From Promethearchaeota archaeon (GTDB lineage: Archaea; Asgardarchaeota; Lokiarchaeia; Sigyniarchaeales; SOKP01): 32,000 bases of DNA. Numbering within the stretch: position 1 is the stretch's first letter; every line of letters starts with the position of its first letter. The notes beneath the pieces were generated by a model. That model was not told the origin of the DNA and did no database searches. It saw nothing but the letters and a program-made list of their open reading frames with translations. Positions 1,357 through 28,280 of the stretch are shown here, one piece after another. The stretch spans positions 49,317 through 81,316 of the forward strand of contig JAUWGH010000010.1 in NCBI GenBank assembly GCA_030606485.1, in the 5' to 3' direction. Both the position numbers and the translations under genes were made by a program.

Positions 1357-1812
1357 ATGGGAGAAATGGAAATGGTGATTGGACGACGGATTAAGATAAC
1401 TTGTATTCTTGGAGATATTCTAATCATAATTGGCTGGTTTACTCCTTATTTCTATGGTTTGATTTTGGAAATTCATACCTACCAATGGATGTGGGGGTTT
1501 AAATCAGCTAATGGTGTTATGGAGATGTTACCATTGGAAGGGGATATTTTAACGTTGTTTATACTGGCTATAATCATTTTGATATTGGTCATTATAAACT
1601 TGATAATTTGTTTCCTTATGAGAAAACTAAAAGATAAAAGGCTAATGGGCATTCTAAAGATAATAATAGGAGTTATTATAATTATTTTAGTAATATTACC
1701 TCTTATAATTACTCCTACGCTATTAACAAACTATACTCTTTTCGTGGGATTCTATCTAATGATAATTGGTGCTATTTTCGTAATCATTGTTGGCGTACGT
1801 GTTATTAGGTAA
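1357..1812 (+). CDS. Hypothetical integral membrane protein (~4 TM helices), 151 aa
   Basis: ORF track; four long hydrophobic stretches separated by a basic loop (MRKLKDKRL). Confidence 0.75.
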   Translation: MGEMEMVIGRRIKITCILGDILIIIGWFTPYFYGLILEIHTYQWMWGFKSANGVMEMLPLEGDILTLFILAIIILILVIINLIICFLMRKLKDKRLMGILKIIIGVIIIILVILPLIITPTLLTNYTLFVGFYLMIIGAIFVIIVGVRVIR

Positions 1813-2164
1813 TGATAAAGAATTTAATATATTAAAACTTAAATCTAAATATTTTTTTTCAATTCTTTTTTTATTAGTTTTTATAAAAAAAGAAAATGAG
1901 TATCGTTTGATTGTTACATTCCCTACGATTGAAATTGATGTTTATTTAATTACACCTCATAACTATGAATTTATCGAAAAAGATATTGATTTAGAAGTCT
2001 TTAATGATGAAGATTGTACAGTAAGAAATTACAAAGAAGAACGGCGTTTAAAAAGAAATCTTTTTAAAATTAAAAGTAACTATATGCTCCGTTTATCTTT
2101 TTTATTTCCTAAAAAAAATCATCATTATAAAATTAAATTTAATACTCAAAAAATAGTGATATAA
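1787..2164 (+). CDS. Doubtful hypothetical ORF or gene remnant (TTG start overlapping the previous gene)
   Basis: The C-terminal two thirds (ENEYRLIVTFPTIEIDVYLITPHNYEF...) look protein-like. The 5' part is low-complexity AT sequence with no SD. Confidence 0.3.
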   Translation: MLAYVLLGNDKEFNILKLKSKYFFSILFLLVFIKKENEYRLIVTFPTIEIDVYLITPHNYEFIEKDIDLEVFNDEDCTVRNYKEERRLKRNLFKIKSNYMLRLSFLFPKKNHHYKIKFNTQKIVI

Positions 2165-6281: not shown

Positions 6282-6388
6282 AAGGAAGAAGAAATATAAA
6301 AAATATTGTCATAATATAGCAACTAAAAAAATAATGCTTTCATATTTAAGTAAAAAATAGATGACAAAAATGAAGTTCTATTAAATAA

Positions 6389-6532
6389 GGGAGGATAAAG
6401 TCTTTAATGCTTCTCCGCCCATCAATAAATAGGGGGAGGAGGAGGGCGAAAATAAGTGTAGATAAATACTACACCAACCAAAAGACAAAAATCCAGTATG
6501 GGGGGAGATGCAACCTTTGACTTTATCCTTAC
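6389..6532. repeat. Palindrome-ended intergenic element A (MITE-like or structured RNA)
   Basis: Perfect 11-bp inverted repeat AGGATAAAGTC (6392-6402) / GACTTTATCCT (6519-6529); internal hairpin GTGTAG/CTACAC (6456-6474); interior GC-richer than the surroundings; shares four ordered motifs with element B. Confidence 0.6.
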
Positions 6533-6609
6533 CAATATTATCTAAAAATTAACTATAAAAAGATTTCTATTCCTTTTTTTTGTTTAAAAAGGTCCATTGA
6601 AATTATCAT

Positions 6610-7416: not shown

Positions 7417-8445
7417 ATGAGTAAAATCAATCGAAGGAAAAAAAATAATAAATGGAATACATCAGAAAATGAAGAAGTAAAAAGATATTATTTATTGGGT
7501 AATAAATTTCTTGAACAAAGAAATTTCCAAGAAGCAATAATCTATTATAAAAAAGCATTAGAAATTGATCCTCAAGATATATTAACACTTTCTAATTTAG
7601 GCCGAGTATACCATCATTCCTATGTTCTGCAATCATCAACTAAAGATCTGAGTTTATTGGACAATTCTGAAGCTTGTTATCTAGAAGCAACAAAAATAGA
7701 TCCCAATTTTTGGTTATCATACTTCACTTTGGGAGTAATTAAAATTGAACGGAAAGAATTTTTGAAAGCACTAACATATCATCTGAAATTTCTTACTGTT
7801 TATGAAAAAGCGAAAGTAAAAAACTTCAAAATGTATAATCATGCAACCAATTATATTGTAGAATCCATTAAAAAAGGAAAAATTTCTGTAGAATCATTCA
7901 AAAAATTATTAAATATCTCAATTTCTAAAGAAATATGGACACTATTGGGATACGGTTTGCTACATAGTCAATTATATGAATCTGCCGAATTATGCTTTCT
8001 TAAAGTAATCGAAAAACACCCGGATTATTCTAGTGGATACATTGATTTGGGAAATGTGTATATTGAGATGATTAAAAATATTCCCGATTATTGTCCTAAT
8101 TTTAATAAAATTAAAAATTATCTTAAAAAAGCCGTCGAGCTTGACACTAACAATGAAATTGCATGGAATAATCTTGGAACATATTACACATTTGTTGATG
8201 ATTTTGAAAAAGCGAAATTTTGTTATAAAACATCAATCAAACTCAAAAATTACTGCATAACTCCATGGTATAGTCTTGCAAGTATTCTGGTCAAGAAGGG
8301 TTTATATAAAGAAGCAATAAAATGCCTAAAAAAAGTCGTTCAAATTGATCCAAATTATACCCCTGCTAAAGAAGCGTTGGACATACTTAAGAATAATACT
8401 AAGGAACAATTATCCAGGAAAAGAATTGAATTAAGAATAAATTAA
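7417..8445 (+). CDS. Tetratricopeptide repeat (TPR) protein, 342 aa
   Basis: Multiple 34-aa TPR units, e.g. YYLLGNKFLEQRNFQEAIIYYKKALEIDP, AWNNLGTYY..FEKAKFCYKTSI, PWYSLASIL..YKEAIKCLKKVVQIDP. Confidence 0.92.
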   Translation: MSKINRRKKNNKWNTSENEEVKRYYLLGNKFLEQRNFQEAIIYYKKALEIDPQDILTLSNLGRVYHHSYVLQSSTKDLSLLDNSEACYLEATKIDPNFWLSYFTLGVIKIERKEFLKALTYHLKFLTVYEKAKVKNFKMYNHATNYIVESIKKGKISVESFKKLLNISISKEIWTLLGYGLLHSQLYESAELCFLKVIEKHPDYSSGYIDLGNVYIEMIKNIPDYCPNFNKIKNYLKKAVELDTNNEIAWNNLGTYYTFVDDFEKAKFCYKTSIKLKNYCITPWYSLASILVKKGLYKEAIKCLKKVVQIDPNYTPAKEALDILKNNTKEQLSRKRIELRIN

Positions 8446-8537
8446 ATCAATCAGTTAAACTAACCAATAACTTACAATTTTTGCAATATATAAAAGGATT
8501 ATGAACCTTTAATTGTAAAGGAGTTTCACATTTGGAA
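8445..8537 (-). repeat. Direct repeat R1: orphan copy of the 3' 93 bp of the Zn-ribbon gene (partner R2 at 10247-10339)
   Basis: Base-by-base comparison: 89/93 identical to 10247-10339. It encodes SKCETPLQLKVHNPFIYCKNCKLLVSLTD* with no in-frame start codon. Confidence 0.95.
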
Positions 8538-8545
8538 GATACTAC

Positions 8546-8588: not shown

Positions 8589-9269
8589 TTATAATAAAAT
8601 TTTTAATACTTTATCAACACTCGATTTATTTTGCTTTAATCTCCCTGAAAAATAAGTAATTAGGTGATATACACATTCCGAAAGGGTATTGTAATTAAAA
8701 GTAAGGCAGGCAAGCTCAACTTCATAACTTGCGATATGCTTCTGCTTAGCTTTATCAAGAGCGTATTTTGCTAGCTTTATCGTATTTTTATGTAATGGTC
8801 GTAGCTTTTTAATTTGAGCAATTTTCTTTTTCTCCTGTTTAAATTCCTGATTTGTAAGGTATACAACGTCAACATAACATTTGGGATTTAAAAAATCTAT
8901 ATGGACAGCCTTGTCCCCCATATGCACTTTAGAATTCTTCTTAAATCCTTTTTTAGCCCTCTCTAAAAGATCCTTTCGAATAGTATTCTTATTTTGATCT
9001 TTGCCAGTACAAAAAATTATGTCTAAATCGCTCTTCCTAATATCTGTTCGCTTCCCTCGTGATCCACCTTCCTTTATCGCTGCGATTTTAAAACCTGTAG
9101 TCTTTCGTAGGAAGTTCATAACTCGGTTTAATTTCGAATCATATAATGTCTGGGTTTGAGGATCGGTATTAATTTTCTTTAAAAATTCTTTAAGCTTTCT
9201 ATTCTCTAATTTCTTAAGACTACTCGTTTTTTCCACCTTTGTATATTTATTGAAATAGTATTTTAACAA
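8589..9269 (-). CDS. Compact cGAS/DncV/OAS-like (SMODS-type) pol-beta-superfamily nucleotidyltransferase
   Basis: Signature IKEGGSRGKRTDIRKSDLDIIF (hG[G]S..K.T....SDxD, close to the OAS motif VKGGSSGKGT..GRSDAD), third Asp in CYVDVV, C-lobe helices IKLAKYAL and IASYEVELACL. The start is uncertain (TTG 9269 or GTG 9236). Confidence 0.8.
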   Translation of the reverse strand: MLKYYFNKYTKVEKTSSLKKLENRKLKEFLKKINTDPQTQTLYDSKLNRVMNFLRKTTGFKIAAIKEGGSRGKRTDIRKSDLDIIFCTGKDQNKNTIRKDLLERAKKGFKKNSKVHMGDKAVHIDFLNPKCYVDVVYLTNQEFKQEKKKIAQIKKLRPLHKNTIKLAKYALDKAKQKHIASYEVELACLTFNYNTLSECVYHLITYFSGRLKQNKSSVDKVLKILL

Positions 9270-9448
9270 GAAAATTCGACTATTTAAATTTATCTTACTT
9301 TTTAAGGATCCTTGTTATGGATATCCTTTTGATATATATTCTAAAACTAGATTTTTGTTTTTTCTTAATGTTAGATATTTTGATAGTCTGATTTACATGA
9401 AATAGAGACATCGTTATTTTTAATAAATTTCCAAATTTTAATCAAAAA

Positions 9449-9552
9449 AGAAGGATAAAGCCCGTTGGTATTTATTTCCTCTAAAAAACGAGGTTAAGGG
9501 CATTGGCGAAAACATTTCGAATATAAATACCGATTTTTGACTTTATCCTTAC
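9449..9552. repeat. Palindrome-ended intergenic element B (related to element A)
   Basis: Outer IR AAGGATAAAG (9451-9460) / CTTTATCCTT (9541-9550); inner IR GGTATTTAT (9467-9475) / ATAAATACC (9523-9531); right end TTTGACTTTATCCTTAC identical to element A. Confidence 0.6.
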
Positions 9553-9622
9553 AGAAACAATTGATAAATATGTATAAAAAGATCACAATTTTTCTTCGCT
9601 CTCTCAAATTTTTTAAGGGGTA

Positions 9623-10150
9623 TTAAGAAGAAATTTTCATTTCAGCGATTCTTAGCGCAGCCTTTAGAATGGGCATTATTTTTTTTTTAATTTTATGTCG
9701 GGTTAACTTGCTTTTAAGGCATTCAAATTTATCCTCTTTTTCCTCGTTTTCTTCGCAACATTTTCTAGCTTTATCAAAAATGAACAGAAATTGCTCGGAA
9801 TATGGTTTATCTTTCTGAAATTGATAACTAAAAATCTCATCATCATCAAGGGATTTGAAAAACGCTAAACAAGGAATTTTTGTATAACTAATGCCTAACT
9901 CTTTCATTAAACTAAAAATCTTGACTGGGGGATTTGGATCTTTTAAATCGTCTAAAATAAAGACGAATACGTCCTCACCGGACATGTCGTCTAAAATATT
10001 GTAGGATTGGATGACGTAATTTCTTAATTTCTCATGATCCTTATTATATAACAGTAAAGCATATAAATTCCTCCAAGAATTTTTGATTTCCCCCCAATAT
10101 TTGTATAAGTCATTAATGTCCATAGTTGGTTTAACAAATATTGCTGCCAT
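9623..10150 (-). CDS. Hypothetical protein, 175 aa, possible thioredoxin-like alpha/beta fold without CxxC, basic amphipathic C-terminal helix
   Basis: ORF track; strand/helix pattern LYALLLY..helix..LDDMSGEDVFVFIL..LMKELGI..IPCLAFF. The fold call is inference. Confidence 0.7.
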   Translation of the reverse strand: MAAIFVKPTMDINDLYKYWGEIKNSWRNLYALLLYNKDHEKLRNYVIQSYNILDDMSGEDVFVFILDDLKDPNPPVKIFSLMKELGISYTKIPCLAFFKSLDDDEIFSYQFQKDKPYSEQFLFIFDKARKCCEENEEKEDKFECLKSKLTRHKIKKKIMPILKAALRIAEMKISS

Positions 10151-10246: not shown

Positions 10247-10339
10247 AATCAATCAGTTAAACTAACCAAGAACTTACAATTTTTACAATATATAAAAGGA
10301 TTATGAACCTTTAATTGTAAAGGAGTCTCGCATTTGGAA
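10247..10339 (-). repeat. Direct repeat R2 (3' end of the intact Zn-ribbon gene)
   Basis: 89/93 identical to 8445-8537; offset 1802 bp. Confidence 0.95.
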
Positions 10340-10518
10340 CATATAATATTTCTTTCAGGAATAAGACCTACTATAAACTGACATTCACCGCAATAGACAA
10401 AGGGCTTTTGAACCTCTAATTCGAAGGGCTTATCGCAAGCCGGGCATCTAGCACTATGCTCATGAAAAATAGTTTCAATCCCTTCTACATTGTAAATATT
10501 CATTACTTCCGAATACAT
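10249..10518 (-). CDS. Double zinc-ribbon small protein (four CxxC pairs), probable start MYSEV at 10518
   Basis: CPAC..CGEC..CSKC..CKNC; internal duplication CxxC-x-P-x6-PF[VI]YCxxCxF[IL]V. The paralogue at 11912 also starts MYSEV, which supports this start over 10530. Confidence 0.85.
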   Translation of the reverse strand: MYSEVMNIYNVEGIETIFHEHSARCPACDKPFELEVQKPFVYCGECQFIVGLIPERNIICSKCETPLQLKVHNPFIYCKNCKFLVSLTD

Positions 10519-10669
10519 TTTCCATATCATTCTTTTAGTTAATATTCTGTATTAGGGATTTTAAAATACGCATATTTAAAGAAAAAATTTGAAGTGATTT
10601 GAATTGAGAGAATTTTTTTATTTAAATATCATGAGTTAAAATTACCATTAAAACAAAAAATGATGTATC

Positions 10670-11350: not shown

Positions 11351-11728
11351 ATGAAAAAAAAAGAAGTTAAATTTATACAAGGAAATTATGAACGGATTAA
11401 AGAAATAAGCAATTATTCTGGAGTTTCTTTCGATAAAGTCCTTAACGTCTCGTTGCTATCTGGAATTAAAGAATATTGGGGTAAAATAGTTAAAATCGTA
11501 AATAATTTTCCCGGATGTCTTTTGCCGGAAAATGAGAATTATGAGATAGTGCAGGACCTATTTGTTACACTCGGCAAAAAAATTGAATCTGAATATGAAG
11601 GAATAAAAGAGGTTGAGGCAATGGAAAGAGAATTTGATGAGATATATCCTGTTGGATATTTTGGAGATTTAGAAATAAGACATGAAGAATTCATAAAATT
11701 TTTAGATAGTACCAAAAAACGGTCATAG
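11351..11728 (+). CDS. Hypothetical protein with a possible N-terminal ribbon-helix-helix DNA-binding motif (probable start ATG 11351)
   Basis: EVKFIQGNYERIKEISNYSGVSFDKVLNVSLLSGI fits the RHH strand-helix-G-x-S-helix pattern; acidic C-terminus. Confidence 0.6.
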   Translation: MKKKEVKFIQGNYERIKEISNYSGVSFDKVLNVSLLSGIKEYWGKIVKIVNNFPGCLLPENENYEIVQDLFVTLGKKIESEYEGIKEVEAMEREFDEIYPVGYFGDLEIRHEEFIKFLDSTKKRS

Positions 11729-11912
11729 AGATAATGGTTAATACATATTTAAAATATATATTCTCTTGAAACTTGCATTCGCTACAATAAATAAATGGCT
11801 TCTGAGTCTTTATTTTGAATGGTCTCTCACAAACCGGACATTTAGCCTTATAATCTTCAAAAAGAGAATTAATACTTTCAATACTGCTAATAATCACTAC
11901 TTCTGAATACAT
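11691..11912 (-). pseudogene. Diverged 5'-half copy of the Zn-ribbon gene (single ribbon, unrelated tail)
   Basis: First 48 aa are 24/48 identical to the 10249-10518 product (MYSEV..CPxC..PF..QKPFxYCxECxF); similarity then stops abruptly. The upstream DNA is also similar. Confidence 0.65.
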
Positions 11913-12061: not shown

Positions 12062-13096
12062 TTGGAGATGAAGAATATGGAAATTGTAGAATATGAGTTT
12101 AAAAAATATCATGTAGAAGATTATAGAGATTTCTTACGAGACTTCTGGAACGAATCAGAATTTGAAGGTAATATCTATTACGAGTATGAGAGAAGGAGAT
12201 ATGGTCGAACTGAAGCGTATTGTAAAACCTTTCTTCCTAAAATTGGAAAATTGGAGAAAATAATTCTTCGAAGCTTTCCGGAGATTAACATTCATAATTA
12301 TGGTTTAATTGATCACGATATAGAATTTGTAGGTGATGAGGGAAAAATTCACTGCGGAGAGAATTTTTATTGGGGCTATAAAGGTGGTGGTCCTGGTGAT
12401 TTTCATACCTTATTAGAACTGCTTGGTCTAGATATTACATATGATGAGATCGCAAATATACCACAAGAACTTAAAAAACCTTTTGAAATTCACTTAAAAG
12501 AAAAGAAAAAATACTTTATTGAAGATCCTGATGACCATTGGATCTGGATGTATACGAAAAGTAGTATAAATTATTGCAGGCAGAACCTATCAAAGATCGG
12601 AAAAATTAGTAAAGTTGTCCTTTCGATTCCACCAGATATCACTTGGGGCTATGAAGGTACGAAAATAATCGGAGAGAATGGTATAATTTTTTGTTTCGGT
12701 TTCGGTTGGGGATTGGATTATTTCAAATCAAGGGCTTTACTCTGGCTGCTTAAAACACTAGGTTTGGATGTTGATATGGGTTATATTATCAAGCTTCCTA
12801 AACCAGAAATTGGGGTACCATTTACTCCGATAATCATAGATATACCAGAAGAAACCGTTTTTGAGAAGTTAATTGGTATTCCAGATTGTCCTATTTGCGA
12901 ATCAAGCAGAATTTATTTTCAATCAGCAACTAATAAATGCCGATGCAAAAGGTGTGGGAGCATTTTCTCTAAGAATGGCACATTAATAAATAAGAGAGAA
13001 TTGCCAGCATGCCCTGAATGCTGGAATGTTTATACCGTTTCTTATGATATTTCTAATGGTCGTCATCACTGTTGTTATTGTGATATTAAGTTTTAA
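12062..13096 (+). CDS. Hypothetical protein, 344 aa: two tandem copies of a DUF6166-like (F-x-W-G-Y-x-G-x-G-P) domain plus two C-terminal Zn ribbons
   Basis: Repeats YC..L.KIGK..K..L..P.I..G..G.I.C..F.WG...L..LL..LGLD; C-terminal CPIC..CKRC and CPEC..CCYC. The family name comes from motif memory only. Confidence 0.75.
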   Translation: MEMKNMEIVEYEFKKYHVEDYRDFLRDFWNESEFEGNIYYEYERRRYGRTEAYCKTFLPKIGKLEKIILRSFPEINIHNYGLIDHDIEFVGDEGKIHCGENFYWGYKGGGPGDFHTLLELLGLDITYDEIANIPQELKKPFEIHLKEKKKYFIEDPDDHWIWMYTKSSINYCRQNLSKIGKISKVVLSIPPDITWGYEGTKIIGENGIIFCFGFGWGLDYFKSRALLWLLKTLGLDVDMGYIIKLPKPEIGVPFTPIIIDIPEETVFEKLIGIPDCPICESSRIYFQSATNKCRCKRCGSIFSKNGTLINKRELPACPECWNVYTVSYDISNGRHHCCYCDIKF

Positions 13097-21407: not shown

Positions 21408-21839
21408 TTGGGGTTTCACTGCACTTATCACTCACTCGAGGTGTTAAAATTAAAACCAAAAATAATTATAGATATTTCTAATATCGCCGGTTATTATAAT
21501 GAATTCCCCCCTAAAATAAAAAATATCGACATAATGTATAACACTTTAAAATATAAATATTGGATCATCGGTATAGCTGATTGGCAACTGTATTATTATA
21601 TTGATTATCTTGAGTCTTATAAAAATTACTTAAAACGAAGAATAATTTTGGAAGCTCCTCCAGGTATTAAGGCAGATATTCTTTTAATAATGAAGGCCAT
21701 TCAGGATGATTGTCCAATAATTACAAATGATAATTTAAGAGATCATGAGGATTTAATTCCCTCAATATCTTGGTTAAAAAATCATAGGATTCCATTTGAT
21801 ATAATTAATGGGGAATTTAGGATTTATTTGTCAAAATAA
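21408..21839 (+). CDS. Zc3h12a/Regnase-like NYN (PIN-fold) ribonuclease domain protein (start uncertain; GTG 21441 possible)
   Basis: IIIDISNIA (D-x-S-N), IAD, KADILLI, IITNDNLRDH, WLKNHRIPF: the acidic tetrad and order of the RNase_Zc3h12a-type NYN domain. Confidence 0.8.
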   Translation: MGFHCTYHSLEVLKLKPKIIIDISNIAGYYNEFPPKIKNIDIMYNTLKYKYWIIGIADWQLYYYIDYLESYKNYLKRRIILEAPPGIKADILLIMKAIQDDCPIITNDNLRDHEDLIPSISWLKNHRIPFDIINGEFRIYLSK

Positions 21840-24890: not shown

Positions 24891-27800
24891 ATGAGTAATG
24901 ATATTAAAAATAGCAAAGCCTATGAAATTGAAAAGCAAGTAATCATTGATATTGAAGAGGAAATCGGATATAAATTTAATATTCTTGATAAAGAGGAATT
25001 TTTTTATGCATTTCGTCCAATTTTTTATTCATTACTCGATTTAAAAAATGGATGGCCCCCTAATAATGATAAATTGGAAGAGTATCAGGACATAGAAGGT
25101 AAAAGTTTATTAGCAATTGTTATAGAAGCTGATCACATTACTGGACTATCCATTCAAGATGATCCAATAACCCCTATTAAAATCTCACAACTACCTAAAT
25201 CATTTAAGAATTTAAAATTTCTTAAAATTTTGGTTATAGGAAATCGTCATATTATAAATATACATCAATTTTTAGAGCATCTATCGAATTTAGAATTTCT
25301 TTCATTAGCACATACCAGATTGGTGTATGAATCTGGAATTTTTAACAATTTAGAAAACCTTAAAGGTCTAGATCTTGGATATTATTCCAGAAACATTGAT
25401 TTGATTAAGGAAGTTTGTAAAATTACTTCTTTACAAATGTTAGACCTTTCAAGAACAAACTTAAAGGTTATACCAGATTGTTTTCATAATTTATCTAATT
25501 TAAAAATTCTAGATTTGTCAGATAAAAATGATCTTCAATCCTTTCCTAGAAATCTAAAGGAGCTAAATAATTTAGAAATATTAACCTTATATCGAGCAGG
25601 TATTAGTAAAATCCCCGAAGATATTCAATTACCACAAAATCTTAAAGAAATTAACTTTAAACGTAATCCTTTTACAGAATTACCTAACAACTTTGAAGAT
25701 CTGCCAAAATTAGAAAAAATTCAAGTAGATGGTGATGTGATTGCAAACTATATTAGAAAAACCAAAACAGAATTGTATAATGAATTTCAAAAAGATGTTA
25801 AAGATATTAATTTTCACATTCTTTATTCTTTAACTCGAAAGAAGAAAACATTTCTTGATTTATTACTTGAAAATGGGATTAATTATGAAGAAGCTTTACA
25901 TATCTATAAAGACTTACTTCCTCCTATTAAAAAAGGAATTGATCCTTATTTCATAGATTCAGAAGAGGAAAGAGATAGAAAAAAAGCATTTAAAATCCTC
26001 TTAAATAATGATTTAAGATATATTAAATCTTTGCATAATGATTTAAAATGGATTTGTGAAAATCAAATAACTATAAAGAAAGTAGTATTAGAAGAAGATG
26101 ATAAAAAGAGAATAGTTAAGCTAGGCAGATTAAATATTTTTGTTGGAAAGAATAATTCTGGAAAAACTTATACTTTAAAGCAATTGTATGATAAAATTAG
26201 GAAAATAACTCCTGAGGAAGATATGCTTTCTGAAGATGAACCAAGAGATTTTTCTGGTATTGAAGTTGAAAAAAAAGGCGAATATGAACTATTTAAAGAA
26301 GGGGTTGATTGTTTTTACATTCCAAAAAGCAGAATATATAATGATATAGTGACACAAGGTGAGAGAAAGGGTTTTGAAAAATCGTTGAGTGATTTATTAG
26401 ATAATTTTAAGAAATTACAGTCAGAAGCGGATATTTGGTCATTTGATAAAATAATTGAAGTAATTAACTTTTTTAATTCTACTGATGAGGAGATCTCTGA
26501 ATTAGAGTCATCATCAAAAAAATTATTTAATGAGTTCCGTTTAATTTTAAAAAAATGGTTGGATGCACTTCATCTATATTTTCCAGATATCGACCTTAGA
26601 CTTCCAAAGCGTTCTGATTTTAACACAGTATATGAATTTGATTGTAAAGATGCATATATCCCTTCTTTAAGTTATAATTTTAATGAGCTAGGAAGTGGTA
26701 TGCAGGAATTATCTGTATTAATGTTTTTCATAGAACTTTTAAAATACTTGCCACAAATTAGAGCAGGTAAAATAATGGATACGAAAGAATATCATCGTAT
26801 GCTTTTTATTGATGAACCAGATTTAAGTTTACACCCAGAGCTTCAAGAAAAGTTTTTTAATTATCTTATTAATGCATCTCAAAGAATTCAAATTATCTTA
26901 ACAACTCAATCTCCATTTATACCTAAACCAGTTGAGAATCATATTTCTATTAAACTTTTTAGAAAAGACACCACAGGATTTCATTTTGATGAAATAACAA
27001 ATAATAATTTTGTACTTATTCAGGAAGAACTTTTTAGATACCAACCATTAGAAATTGCTTTATATCTCTCAAAAAATAATTATGAATATTTTAAAAAACT
27101 GGATTATAAATCTGAAGAAGTCTCCATGGGATTGTTTACTGAAAAGAGATACTGTAAAGATAAGAACTATTTAGGTCTTTTAAGACTGGGAACCGTAAAT
27201 TGGAATATGGAAGATAGGATATTGCAGAATGCCTACTTTTTAAGTTTTAATCCAAAAACTGTTGATTTAAACGATAGTTTCGATGTAGAACAAAACAATA
27301 AGAAAAGTTTAAGAGTTTTTATTGTTCAGCTTAATAAAATTCCTGATGAAGAAAGAAAGAAACTAATAGATAAATGTAATAAAAACTTAAAAAGTCAAAA
27401 TTCTATTTTAAGATTATTTACTTTATGTACAACAGTATGGGATAAAGAAAAATTAAAAAATTTTATACTTCATTATAATCTGGGACAACAGAATTCTATA
27501 AGTGAAAAAATAAGACAATATCTAAAAGAGATTGAAGAAGATATCATAGAAAATAAAAGTTTAATCCTTTTTTCAGAGAACACTTTACCCTACGCAATTT
27601 TACCATTTTTACTAGACTATTCAAAGAAGAATAAAGTAGTTATTATTGGAGGGATGGAACATTGCACTCTGGGTAATTTTAACAAAATCATAGACAACCT
27701 TAAAAATGAGTTACGAGAAAGATATAAAGATCCAATAAATTACATGGAACTAGAAGTTGACAATCTTATTGACAATGATACTTATCTTAATCAGGCAGTA

Positions 27801-28280
27801 ATAATTAATGCTGATAAATCTTTTACATTTCAGATAAAAAATCTCCCTGTTTATTTTAATTCAATTAAGAGAAGGGAGGGAATTCCAATAATATTAAAAC
27901 CATTATTTAAAAAGATCCAAACTGTTATTGGAAATATTGCAGTATTAATTTGTAAAGATCTTCTTGTAAATTCTGCTGTGATTGACACTTGGATGGATAT
28001 ACACGATATAAAAATACTAGCAACTCCATCTTTCACTAACTTAGTTAATCCTTTTAGAAACAAATTAGGAGAGATTATATCAAATAAAAAGCAAAAAGAT
28101 AAAGTCTTTATTTTTGCAAATATTTCCGAATATGGCGGATCAGGTGCATATAGTTATGTTAATCGGAGAGATTTTGAACCAAATAGAAAGAGTTTATTTC
28201 CATTTTGTTACGAAATTAAAGAAGAAGAATTCCGACATAGTATCGAAAATTGGAGAAAAAAGGATTTTACTTTTCATTAA
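24891..28280 (+). CDS. 1129-aa multidomain protein: N-terminal leucine-rich repeats, ABC-type (AAA_15/AAA_21-like) ATPase, C-terminal carbon-nitrogen hydrolase (nitrilase-fold) domain
   Basis: LRRs LxxLxxLxLxxN at ~25190-25735; Walker A GKNNSGKT (26145-26168); signature LGSGMQEL (26688-); Walker B/D-loop LFIDEPDLSLHP (26802-); switch TTQSP (26901-); nitrilase motifs RVFIVQ (~27312), LFSE896N, QIK983, LIC1021KD, ANISEYGGS. Confidence 0.88.
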   Translation: MSNDIKNSKAYEIEKQVIIDIEEEIGYKFNILDKEEFFYAFRPIFYSLLDLKNGWPPNNDKLEEYQDIEGKSLLAIVIEADHITGLSIQDDPITPIKISQLPKSFKNLKFLKILVIGNRHIINIHQFLEHLSNLEFLSLAHTRLVYESGIFNNLENLKGLDLGYYSRNIDLIKEVCKITSLQMLDLSRTNLKVIPDCFHNLSNLKILDLSDKNDLQSFPRNLKELNNLEILTLYRAGISKIPEDIQLPQNLKEINFKRNPFTELPNNFEDLPKLEKIQVDGDVIANYIRKTKTELYNEFQKDVKDINFHILYSLTRKKKTFLDLLLENGINYEEALHIYKDLLPPIKKGIDPYFIDSEEERDRKKAFKILLNNDLRYIKSLHNDLKWICENQITIKKVVLEEDDKKRIVKLGRLNIFVGKNNSGKTYTLKQLYDKIRKITPEEDMLSEDEPRDFSGIEVEKKGEYELFKEGVDCFYIPKSRIYNDIVTQGERKGFEKSLSDLLDNFKKLQSEADIWSFDKIIEVINFFNSTDEEISELESSSKKLFNEFRLILKKWLDALHLYFPDIDLRLPKRSDFNTVYEFDCKDAYIPSLSYNFNELGSGMQELSVLMFFIELLKYLPQIRAGKIMDTKEYHRMLFIDEPDLSLHPELQEKFFNYLINASQRIQIILTTQSPFIPKPVENHISIKLFRKDTTGFHFDEITNNNFVLIQEELFRYQPLEIALYLSKNNYEYFKKLDYKSEEVSMGLFTEKRYCKDKNYLGLLRLGTVNWNMEDRILQNAYFLSFNPKTVDLNDSFDVEQNNKKSLRVFIVQLNKIPDEERKKLIDKCNKNLKSQNSILRLFTLCTTVWDKEKLKNFILHYNLGQQNSISEKIRQYLKEIEEDIIENKSLILFSENTLPYAILPFLLDYSKKNKVVIIGGMEHCTLGNFNKIIDNLKNELRERYKDPINYMELEVDNLIDNDTYLNQAVIINADKSFTFQIKNLPVYFNSIKRREGIPIILKPLFKKIQTVIGNIAVLICKDLLVNSAVIDTWMDIHDIKILATPSFTNLVNPFRNKLGEIISNKKQKDKVFIFANISEYGGSGAYSYVNRRDFEPNRKSLFPFCYEIKEEEFRHSIENWRKKDFTFH

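Follow-up and report, generated by a model that had tools for sequence, protein, structure and literature searches.

A sub-threshold CD-NTase/OAS relative in an Asgard archaeon: a probable solo derivative of a two-gene module with a partner of probable HEPN type

In the 32,000-nucleotide stretch of a Promethearchaeota archaeon genome that was analysed here (contig JAUWGH010000010.1, positions 49,317 to 81,316; hereafter the window), a minus-strand open reading frame (ORF) at 8589..9269(-) encodes a small nucleotidyltransferase (NTase). The ORF list and its translation give an open frame of 226 aa from a TTG at 9269. The gene is a sub-threshold relative of the CD-NTases and of OAS in an Asgard archaeon, and it is probably a solo derivative of an undescribed module, in which an NTase is combined with a protein that carries a domain of its own at the N-terminus and probably a HEPN domain. 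A first-pass annotation, made from the sequence alone, had described a very compact OAS-like or CD-NTase-like enzyme with no recognisable effector of the cyclic oligonucleotide-based antiphage signalling system (CBASS) next to it, and its overall interpretation is partly supported. The motifs that it had named (KEGGSRGKRTDIRKSDLDIIF, YVDVV, IKLAKYAL and ASYEVEL) are all exactly present in the ORF.

The coding sequence probably runs over 8589..9236(-), from a GTG start at 9236-9234 to the stop at 8591-8589, with a product of 215 aa. This length is adopted because the in-frame GTG coincides with the position of the ATG of homologue L022 in a 5' alignment of six close homologues and with the database gene call (P0002, 215 aa, same GTG start). 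Five close homologues have their ATG three codons inside the GTG of the window, where the window has ACG (9227-9225). An A/T-rich TATA-like box, ATAAATTTAAATA, is conserved at 9281..9293(-), about 45 nt upstream of the GTG, within a leader of about 70 nt; in the 5' alignment the ATG of the homologues follows it by about 55 nt, and it is a putative promoter. Nucleotide similarity to six other loci (77-89%) spans only the segment from about 9304 to the stop codon and the flanks are unrelated, so that the unit is the NTase gene together with its own leader.

The family is small and has so far no name: an exhaustive search with phmmer over 1.84 billion representatives returned only 73 clusters at E<=1e-3, nearly all of 200-220 aa. 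In addition, 38 homologues at 51-87% identity were collected besides P0002. For six orthologues of the clade to which the window belongs, called here the solo clade, 15 pairwise comparisons gave ratios of nonsynonymous to synonymous substitution (dN/dS) of 0.08-0.27 at dS values that reached 1.8. These homologues and clusters, the low dN/dS and the conservation of the catalytic residues described below argue that this is not a chance ORF. Judged by its substitution pattern, the gene is under purifying selection and is neither a chance frame nor a dead remnant.

The catalytic signature of the Pol-beta NTases is complete: it has the GS loop, the [DE]x[DE] pair and the further acidic residue. The catalytic loop and strand of the N-lobe (9021..9065(-)), seen in the sequence and in the matches to SMODS and CBASS cyclase profiles, carry G58-S59 (9065-9060), D70 (9029-9027) and D72 (9023-9021). 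The third carboxylate, D123 (8868..8870(-)), lies in the strand CYVDVVY (strand E119-126 of the model) and is invariant in A1, an alignment of 21 close members. In the C-lobe helix IKLAKYAL, K157 (8766..8768(-)) corresponds to the Lys of the helix L-[VA]-K-[HY]-W that CdnC and OAS possess; when a profile of the 45-member family alignment (A2) was compared with the PDB sequences, this helix aligned with RLAKYW of CdnC and RLVKHW of OAS2, and by analogy K157 would contribute to the binding of the nucleoside triphosphate (NTP). In A2, G58, D70, D72, D123 and K157 are each at least 90% conserved. The remainder of the protein, from about residue 127 to 215 (8592..8858(-)), is predicted to form a helical C-lobe of six short helices that includes F196-x-G198-R199. 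These three residues are invariant in A1 and, among the A2 rows shown, are found also in several clade-II members, whereas the motif is missing from the partnered and clade-I rows shown. With its catalytic residues intact, the protein is apparently an active enzyme.

The profile of A2 found CdnC (2.2e-9), OAS2 (3.8e-7), CdnD (4.6e-7) and OAS1 (8e-4) among the PDB sequences and, at the weak end, MntA (0.038), Tailor (0.25) and KNTase (0.83); only this wider profile was informative, and searches of the same sequences with the single sequence or with the A1 profile gave nothing useful. Matches of the NTase to the model libraries were weak but agreed with one another; the PADLOC model 'Cyclase' matched it at 6.9e-8. 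Among the 45 members, the NCBIfam model CBASS_cyclase_a matched 31, CBASS_cyclase_b 16, MntA_antitoxin eight (best 4.8e-5) and cca_archaeal (TIGR03671) six (best 1.4e-5), and the models of resistance NTases matched none at E<=0.01. Moreover, MTPAP-like_central matched 18 of the 21 close members (best 9.6e-6), and P0088, a member that has a partner gene, matched 16 PADLOC cyclase models with both lobes covered. In the NTase of the window neither OAS1_C (PF10421) nor the MntA model NF047752 gave a match at E<=1, the latter in a bilobed protein of 215 aa.

The protein was modelled with AlphaFold (AF2), structure prediction being one of the checks that the first-pass annotation had proposed, and a bilobed cGAS/OAS-type fold was obtained (predicted local distance difference test, pLDDT, 82.5) with two helices at the N-terminus, a core of five strands whose GS loop is flexible, and a C-lobe of six helices. 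The top Foldseek match was CdnC (2.4e-6). A structure search independent of Foldseek (VIA-align) gave NF90/NF45 (Z 13.7), CdnB (13.4), CdnG (13.3), CdnC (12.9), DncV (12.8) and OAS1 (12.6), with weaker matches to TUT4 (11.7), a poly(A) polymerase (PAP, 11.6) and AfCCA (11.3). The alignments to CD-NTases, OAS and DZF proteins cover 200-209 of the 215 residues (200-206 for the four CD-NTases and OAS1); the root-mean-square deviation was 3.6 for CdnB (202 aligned), 3.4 for CdnC (202 aligned, 18% identity) and 3.5 for OAS1 (205 aligned).

The NTase is thus a miniaturised bilobed member of the cGAS/OAS/CD-NTase/TUTase class that leans to CD-NTase and OAS. The earlier claim of an OAS-like or CD-NTase-like enzyme stands in so far as CdnC, OAS2 and CdnD are its closest detectable relatives and the fold scores lie at Z 12.6-13.4; however, all curated cut-offs are missed, and by curated thresholds the protein belongs to no curated family. 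The GGSxGKxT..SDxD pattern had been taken as characteristic of OAS and CD-NTases, but GS...DxD is generic to Pol-beta NTases, MntA included. At 215 aa the enzyme is indeed very compact, but small size alone does not make it unique, because short SMODS-like clusters of 212-264 aa are found also in bacteria.

All named genome records in which relatives occur bear the name Promethearchaeia or Promethearchaeota, that is Asgard, and the host, which had been treated as Asgard only conditionally, is Asgard. One homologue comes from the LCGC14 marine-sediment metagenome, and the sequencing runs that contain DNA of the window are cold-seep, marine-sediment and subsurface metagenomes; no RNA run is listed among them. 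The genome of the window (3.75 Mb, 100% complete) has a single copy of the NTase and no other SMODS-like gene. Intact full-length copies were found in three of 41 related genomes, several others having fragments or copies with stops, and one 100%-complete congener has no copy at all. Among 301 Asgard genomes, 24 gave a match at E<=1e-8. A pattern scan of viral contigs found no relative. Because this distribution is patchy and includes decayed copies, it points to an accessory gene and not to a housekeeping one. In the genome of the window no match to SAVED (PF18145) was obtained, but the control genomes gave none either, so that this negative is uninformative.

The SMODS model also matches, at 25-38 bits, frames of 460-500 aa in nearly every genome of the Asgard families f31, f20 and f7. 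The frames presumably encode the CCA-adding enzyme that archaea have as a housekeeping protein, and such matches are a caveat for automated counts of 'CBASS in Asgard'.

Within the solo clade the gene has no constant company. When every ORF of the window and of seven loci with members at 34-87% identity was compared all against all by BLASTP, only the NTase was common to them, and a second, wider comparison of 15 loci found no conserved neighbour. Pfam and PADLOC scans of the neighbours in the window gave no effector domain, in agreement with the earlier statement that no recognisable CBASS effector is adjacent. Neighbours at other loci include SLFN_AlbA_2, HEPN_RiboL-PSP, DUF4238, DUF6602 and helicases, and also plain metabolic genes. 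The region of the window is not syntenic with four congeneric genomes, in which only fragments and a multi-copy repeat match. The solo NTase moves as a single-gene unit among variable regions, several of them with defence-type genes. At two loci whose NTases are of different clades, L020 (1644-2489) and L033 (6605-7612), a DUF4238 protein is encoded no more than about 1 kb downstream of the NTase; neither protein has a PADLOC match.

The survey of the neighbourhoods of homologues, likewise proposed beforehand, found no conserved neighbour in the clade of the window and a partner of probable HEPN type beside more distant relatives. In these distant members the NTase is followed by a protein of 285-337 aa, with an overlap or a gap of 4-25 nt in most loci; this pairing, the usual arrangement in the family, is new in this analysis. 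The partner stands beside a full-length NTase or one of 108-114 aa at seven metagenome loci and in all seven assessable Asgard genomes. Strong matches to it were found in eight of the 301 Asgard genomes, and in G118, G257, G036, G294, G246, G201 and G106 an ORF of the NTase family is no more than about 400 nt away; two copies in G193 start at contig ends and are not assessable for pairing. The partners of L034 and L035 are 49% identical to each other, and those of L071 and L073 were aligned by hhalign to the partner profile at 91.7% (E 7.8e-7) and 94.6% (E 6.9e-8). At L072 the partner is placed divergently upstream (hhalign 99.75%, E 2e-27). L066 is also counted among the partner loci. At L033 the partner is shortened to 188 aa and has lost its HEPN part beside an intact NTase; in G036 an intact partner ORF lies beside an NTase with four stops.

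The NTases at these loci vary in size and number. An NTase of 108-114 aa, reduced to the N-lobe, adjoins the partner in G246, G201 and G106. Minimal NTases homologous to the N-lobe of the family were located at L074 (1772-2107), L076 (924-1250) and L080 (2580-2924), upstream of the partner by 13-46 nt (L080 and L074) or about 340 nt (L076); in that of L080 the third acidic residue is apparently replaced (KVSLAL). L078 (G257:C28:13500-18000) and L035 (4371-6501) have two or three NTase paralogues in tandem ahead of the partner, and in G257 two of these lie within one frame of 441 aa. At L077 (G118:C13) a canonical SMODS gene (1358-1891(-), 306-aa frame, 51.6 bits against a cut-off of 26.5) is placed divergently beside a compact NTase-HEPN pair.

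In the model of the partner (pLDDT 79.9) the C-terminal 105 residues match the HEPN proteins AF_0298 (Z 13.0), TT1696 (11.1), the HEPN domain of sacsin (10.7) and HepT (9.6). The top nine structural matches of this part are of HEPN type or hypothetical, and none has another named fold. The C-terminal domain is therefore a probable HEPN domain, as judged from the model. No convincing fold match was obtained for the N-terminal 175 residues. R27, Y65, S90, G209, E213, Y257 and H262 are invariant in 11 partner sequences, and the HEPN motif has the form [RN]xxYxxx[KR]H and not the usual Rx4-6H. A complex prediction of P0088 with its own HEPN partner gave no verdict (score 0.00).

The partner profile found nothing in the 100%-complete genome of the window, and therefore the role of the NTase there must be independent of the partner or exerted in trans. 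In the family tree partnered members occur on both sides of the deepest split, and the window falls in a well-supported clade of 12 rows; the context is known for six of these, and every one of the six is solo. Pairing is therefore probably ancestral and the solo state derived, the clade having lost its partner; this inference is drawn from sparse sampling and a midpoint root. Because purifying selection persists, the solo enzyme must act usefully without its cognate partner.

The explanation that we consider best is that the gene encodes an active stand-alone CD-NTase/OAS-like NTase, a probable solo derivative of the NTase and N-domain-HEPN module, which would make an oligonucleotide. Its descriptive part is likely; the explanation as a whole is offered tentatively, at somewhat less than an even chance, and the step in which oligonucleotide synthesis serves as a signal is more doubtful still. 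The GS loop, D70, D72, D123 and K157 would bind NTP-Mg2+ between the lobes, and a nucleoside monophosphate (NMP) would be transferred to the 2'- or 3'-OH of a second nucleotide to give a short linear or cyclic oligonucleotide. In the paired relatives this product would act on the N-domain-HEPN protein, being read by the N-domain so that the HEPN domain is switched on; in the genome of the window it would act on an unlinked receptor.

Three observations speak for signalling rather than for a toxin-antitoxin pair: the affinity to CD-NTases and OAS extends over both lobes, the partner combines a sensor-like N-domain with HEPN, and in G036 the partner is intact although its NTase has four stops. 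An architecture of sensor plus HEPN is typical of ligand-gated HEPN RNases.

Several results weigh against this explanation and should be set beside it. The match to Pfam SMODS (PF18144) reaches 25.5-25.9 bits, below the gathering cut-off of 26.5 bits, and the two CBASS cyclase models of NCBIfam (NF041116/NF041117), for which the cut-off is 200, give 34.9 bits (CBASS_cyclase_a, 8.9e-9) and 18.4 bits. The model of the NTase was built from the shallow alignment of 21 rows. The HEPN assignment of the partner rests on a helical-bundle fold match with a borderline Z, and is only probable because Foldseek, which also ranks AF_0298 first, gives an E-value of just 0.39; neither Pfam, PADLOC nor the partner profile against the PDB sequences yielded a HEPN match at sequence level. 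In the helix of the HEPN motif an invariant Tyr lies five residues before the invariant His, and it is plausible, from this conservation, that it is a nucleotidylylation site. The N-lobe-only relatives of 108-114 aa with the same partner follow the pattern of MntA-HepT and not that of the CD-NTases. Finally, decay would be expected of a synthase after the loss of its effector, whereas purifying selection acts on the solo clade.

Part of this evidence leads to a second reading, possible in our view and as plausible as signalling, in which the NTase is a protein nucleotidylyltransferase like MntA. In the paired relatives it would keep the HEPN protein off by NMPylation, possibly of the invariant Tyr near the invariant His, and the gene of the window would be an orphan 'antitoxin', retained to neutralise related HEPN proteins of viruses or mobile elements or re-aimed at another protein. 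Orphan antitoxins under selection are common. The gene order, NTase then HEPN with short gaps or overlaps in most loci, fits such a pair, as do the invariance of Y257 and H262, the MNT-sized relatives that share the partner and the truncated partner of L033, where decay would have struck the toxin first. The eight MntA_antitoxin matches and the MntA hit among the PDB sequences point the same way, but the protein of the window itself has no MntA match, and the CBASS and OAS profiles score better by orders of magnitude. The full OAS-type C-lobe has no counterpart in MntA, nor the extra 175-aa N-domain of the partner in HepT. Moreover, an intact partner beside a decayed NTase, as in G036, is unexpected if the partner is a toxin, and no homologue of it was found in the genome of the window. 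We lean slightly to oligonucleotide synthesis because the complete two-lobed OAS-type pocket has been kept, and regard the orphan MntA-like role as almost as likely. The covalent-silencing chemistry of HepT/MntA has been described (PMC7641770, PMC11586414).

A template-independent RNA 3'-terminal nucleotidyltransferase, of the type of terminal uridylyltransferases (TUTases), poly(A) polymerases or CCA-adding enzymes, which tails or repairs host or viral RNA and needs no partner, is an improbable third candidate. Such self-sufficient activity would suit the solo state, and the bilobed fold is common to TUTases, PAPs and archaeal CCA enzymes, as the structural matches to TUT4, PAP and AfCCA and the matches to MTPAP-like_central and cca_archaeal reflect; nevertheless, these Z scores and E-values are consistently weaker than those for CD-NTases and OAS. 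All 215 aa make up the catalytic core and there is no RNA-binding extension, the patchy gene with its decayed copies is not a housekeeping one, and the HEPN association of the family would be left unexplained.

That the gene is a mobile single-gene resistance determinant, a small-molecule (antibiotic-type) nucleotidyltransferase like ANT or Lnu, is very unlikely. A single gene with a putative promoter of its own in changing contexts, near KNTase or ANT(2'') in size, would be in keeping with it, but no member matches the NCBIfam resistance models, KNTase reaches only 0.83, and the C-lobe aligns with OAS and CD-NTases whereas the C-domains of ANT are HEPN-like. No ANT, Lnu or KNTase fold is among the 50 best structural rows, which is weak evidence, as absence from them does not exclude a family. 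Least credible is that the gene has no function and is what remains of a two-gene system after its decay. Decayed or truncated copies are common in related genomes and the canonical ATG reads ACG in the window, but dN/dS is low across the solo clade up to a dS of 1.8, all catalytic residues are intact, the leader is conserved and there is an in-frame GTG where one homologue has ATG.

Compared with known systems, the NTase shares with the bacterial CD-NTases of CBASS, above all those of clade C/D (CdnC of E. coli MS115-1, CdnD of P. aeruginosa; SMODS), the GS...DxD...D set, helices at the N-terminus and a C-lobe that is helical and contains the helix L-x-K-[YH]-[AW]. CD-NTases are likewise accessory, patchy and often found among defence-type genes, but they have about 300-320 aa against about 215 aa here. 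From CBASS it differs by the lack of HORMA, Trip13, Cap2, Cap3 and any known Cap effector; the partner of its family is the N-domain-HEPN protein, which is absent from PADLOC and Pfam. OAS1/2/3 have the same bilobed fold (OAS1 Z 12.6 over 205 residues), yet the NTase is a third shorter and lacks a match to OAS1_C. The archaeal class I CCA-adding enzyme, with body and tail domains in about 450 aa, is a housekeeping protein present once per genome, unlike this patchy gene of 215 aa.

Among the CD-NTases of eukaryotes those of OAS type are the most widespread, and they may go back to the last eukaryotic common ancestor, yet in their tree the OAS superfamily falls inside bacterial clade C (PMC10732462). 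RNase L has a KEN RNase domain, which is itself of the HEPN type (PMC3710099), so that the pairing of NTase and probable HEPN protein in the relatives is formally analogous to OAS-RNase L. The ankyrin and pseudokinase parts of RNase L are absent from the partner, and the copy of the window has no partner at all.

Type VII HepT/MntA also has a Pol-beta NTase directly upstream of a HEPN gene, as in the relatives of the window, and the family further resembles it in its minimal NTases of 108-114 aa and in the conserved Tyr near the His of the HEPN motif of the partner. MntA-type proteins are of about 100-140 aa without a C-lobe; the enzyme of the window is bilobed and about twice that size. The partner is about twice the size of HepT, with an additional N-domain, and none was found in the genome of the window.

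In the Hailong system HalB is an NTase of 217 aa whose oligodeoxyadenylate product holds the HalA channel closed (PMC13434031, PDB 9dbh). HalB is similar in length to the NTase of the window and works in a two-gene defence module via an oligonucleotide, but HalA is a channel and the partner described here is not a membrane protein. HalB is missing both from the A2 profile matches to the PDB sequences and from the top 50 rows of the structure search with the NTase; the MNT and AbiEii folds are also absent from those rows and this was not used as evidence. The helical part of HalB weakly matches the HEPN-like part of the partner model (Z 6.9), which suggests that HalB has a KNTase/HEPN-like architecture.

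Other features of the window were also noted. Upstream of the NTase a 175-aa ORF (9623..10150(-)) has three homologues in 5.8 billion clusters and a thioredoxin-like Atlas model. In bacterial proteins the same fold is also found joined to TIR domains. The ORF was considered as a conserved partner and rejected, as it has only these three homologues, adjoins no other family member and is unrelated to the neighbour at L033. This ORF and the NTase are flanked by direct repeats of 97 nt (8445-8541 and 10247-10343, 95% identical), the lower of which duplicates the last approximately 32 codons and the stop of a zinc-ribbon gene (10249..10530(-)). The topology of the pair is attL/attR-like, with no integrase in between. 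The zinc-ribbon gene has a paralogue, also a small double zinc ribbon, at 11691-11912(-) (50% identity over 48 aa; 152-nt DNA repeat, 71%), and a 344-aa protein (12062..13096) ends in zinc ribbons as well.

Two related intergenic elements, at about 9440-9570 and about 6390-6560, have inverted ends (AAGGATAAAGTC ... GACTTTATCCTT) and variable interiors, and each sits downstream of a minus-strand gene. A piece of about 75-115 nt within about 6380-6500 occurs in many copies at 86-96% identity in all four congeneric genomes, and could be an element like a miniature inverted-repeat transposable element or a structured RNA.

Further along the window, a 143-aa protein (21408-21839(+)) carries an NYN ribonuclease domain of Zc3h12a-like type, matched at 6.5e-5 with 23.1 bits, where the cut-off is 23. 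A 1129-aa protein (24891-28280(+)) combines N-terminal leucine-rich repeats with an OLD/ABC-type ATPase (AAA_21/AAA_15) and matches AriA (9.7e-19), Old, GajA and PtuA in PADLOC. This gene is of defence type, and a homologue adjoins the decayed NTase in G036 (L066 8492-9661).

The gene of the window has the more modest value of a clean, short and soluble-looking representative of its family. Current defence-finder tools would miss the two-gene module, because its NTases are sub-threshold and its partner is unmatched in Pfam and PADLOC. The family raises a testable question about the minimum size of a working synthase of the cGAS/OAS type. A second, likewise testable, is how NTase and HEPN protein are coupled in the Asgard archaea, which among archaea are the nearest relatives of eukaryotes: through signalling, on the model of OAS-RNase L, or through covalent silencing of the MntA-HepT kind. 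A miniature pathway of the OAS-RNase L kind, with a synthase of 210 aa whose signal is read by the N-domain of the adjacent HEPN RNase and with the solo clade rewired to an unlinked receptor, is an unlikely proposal as it stands; if true, it would be a prokaryotic, Asgard-side precedent for the eukaryotic OAS logic.

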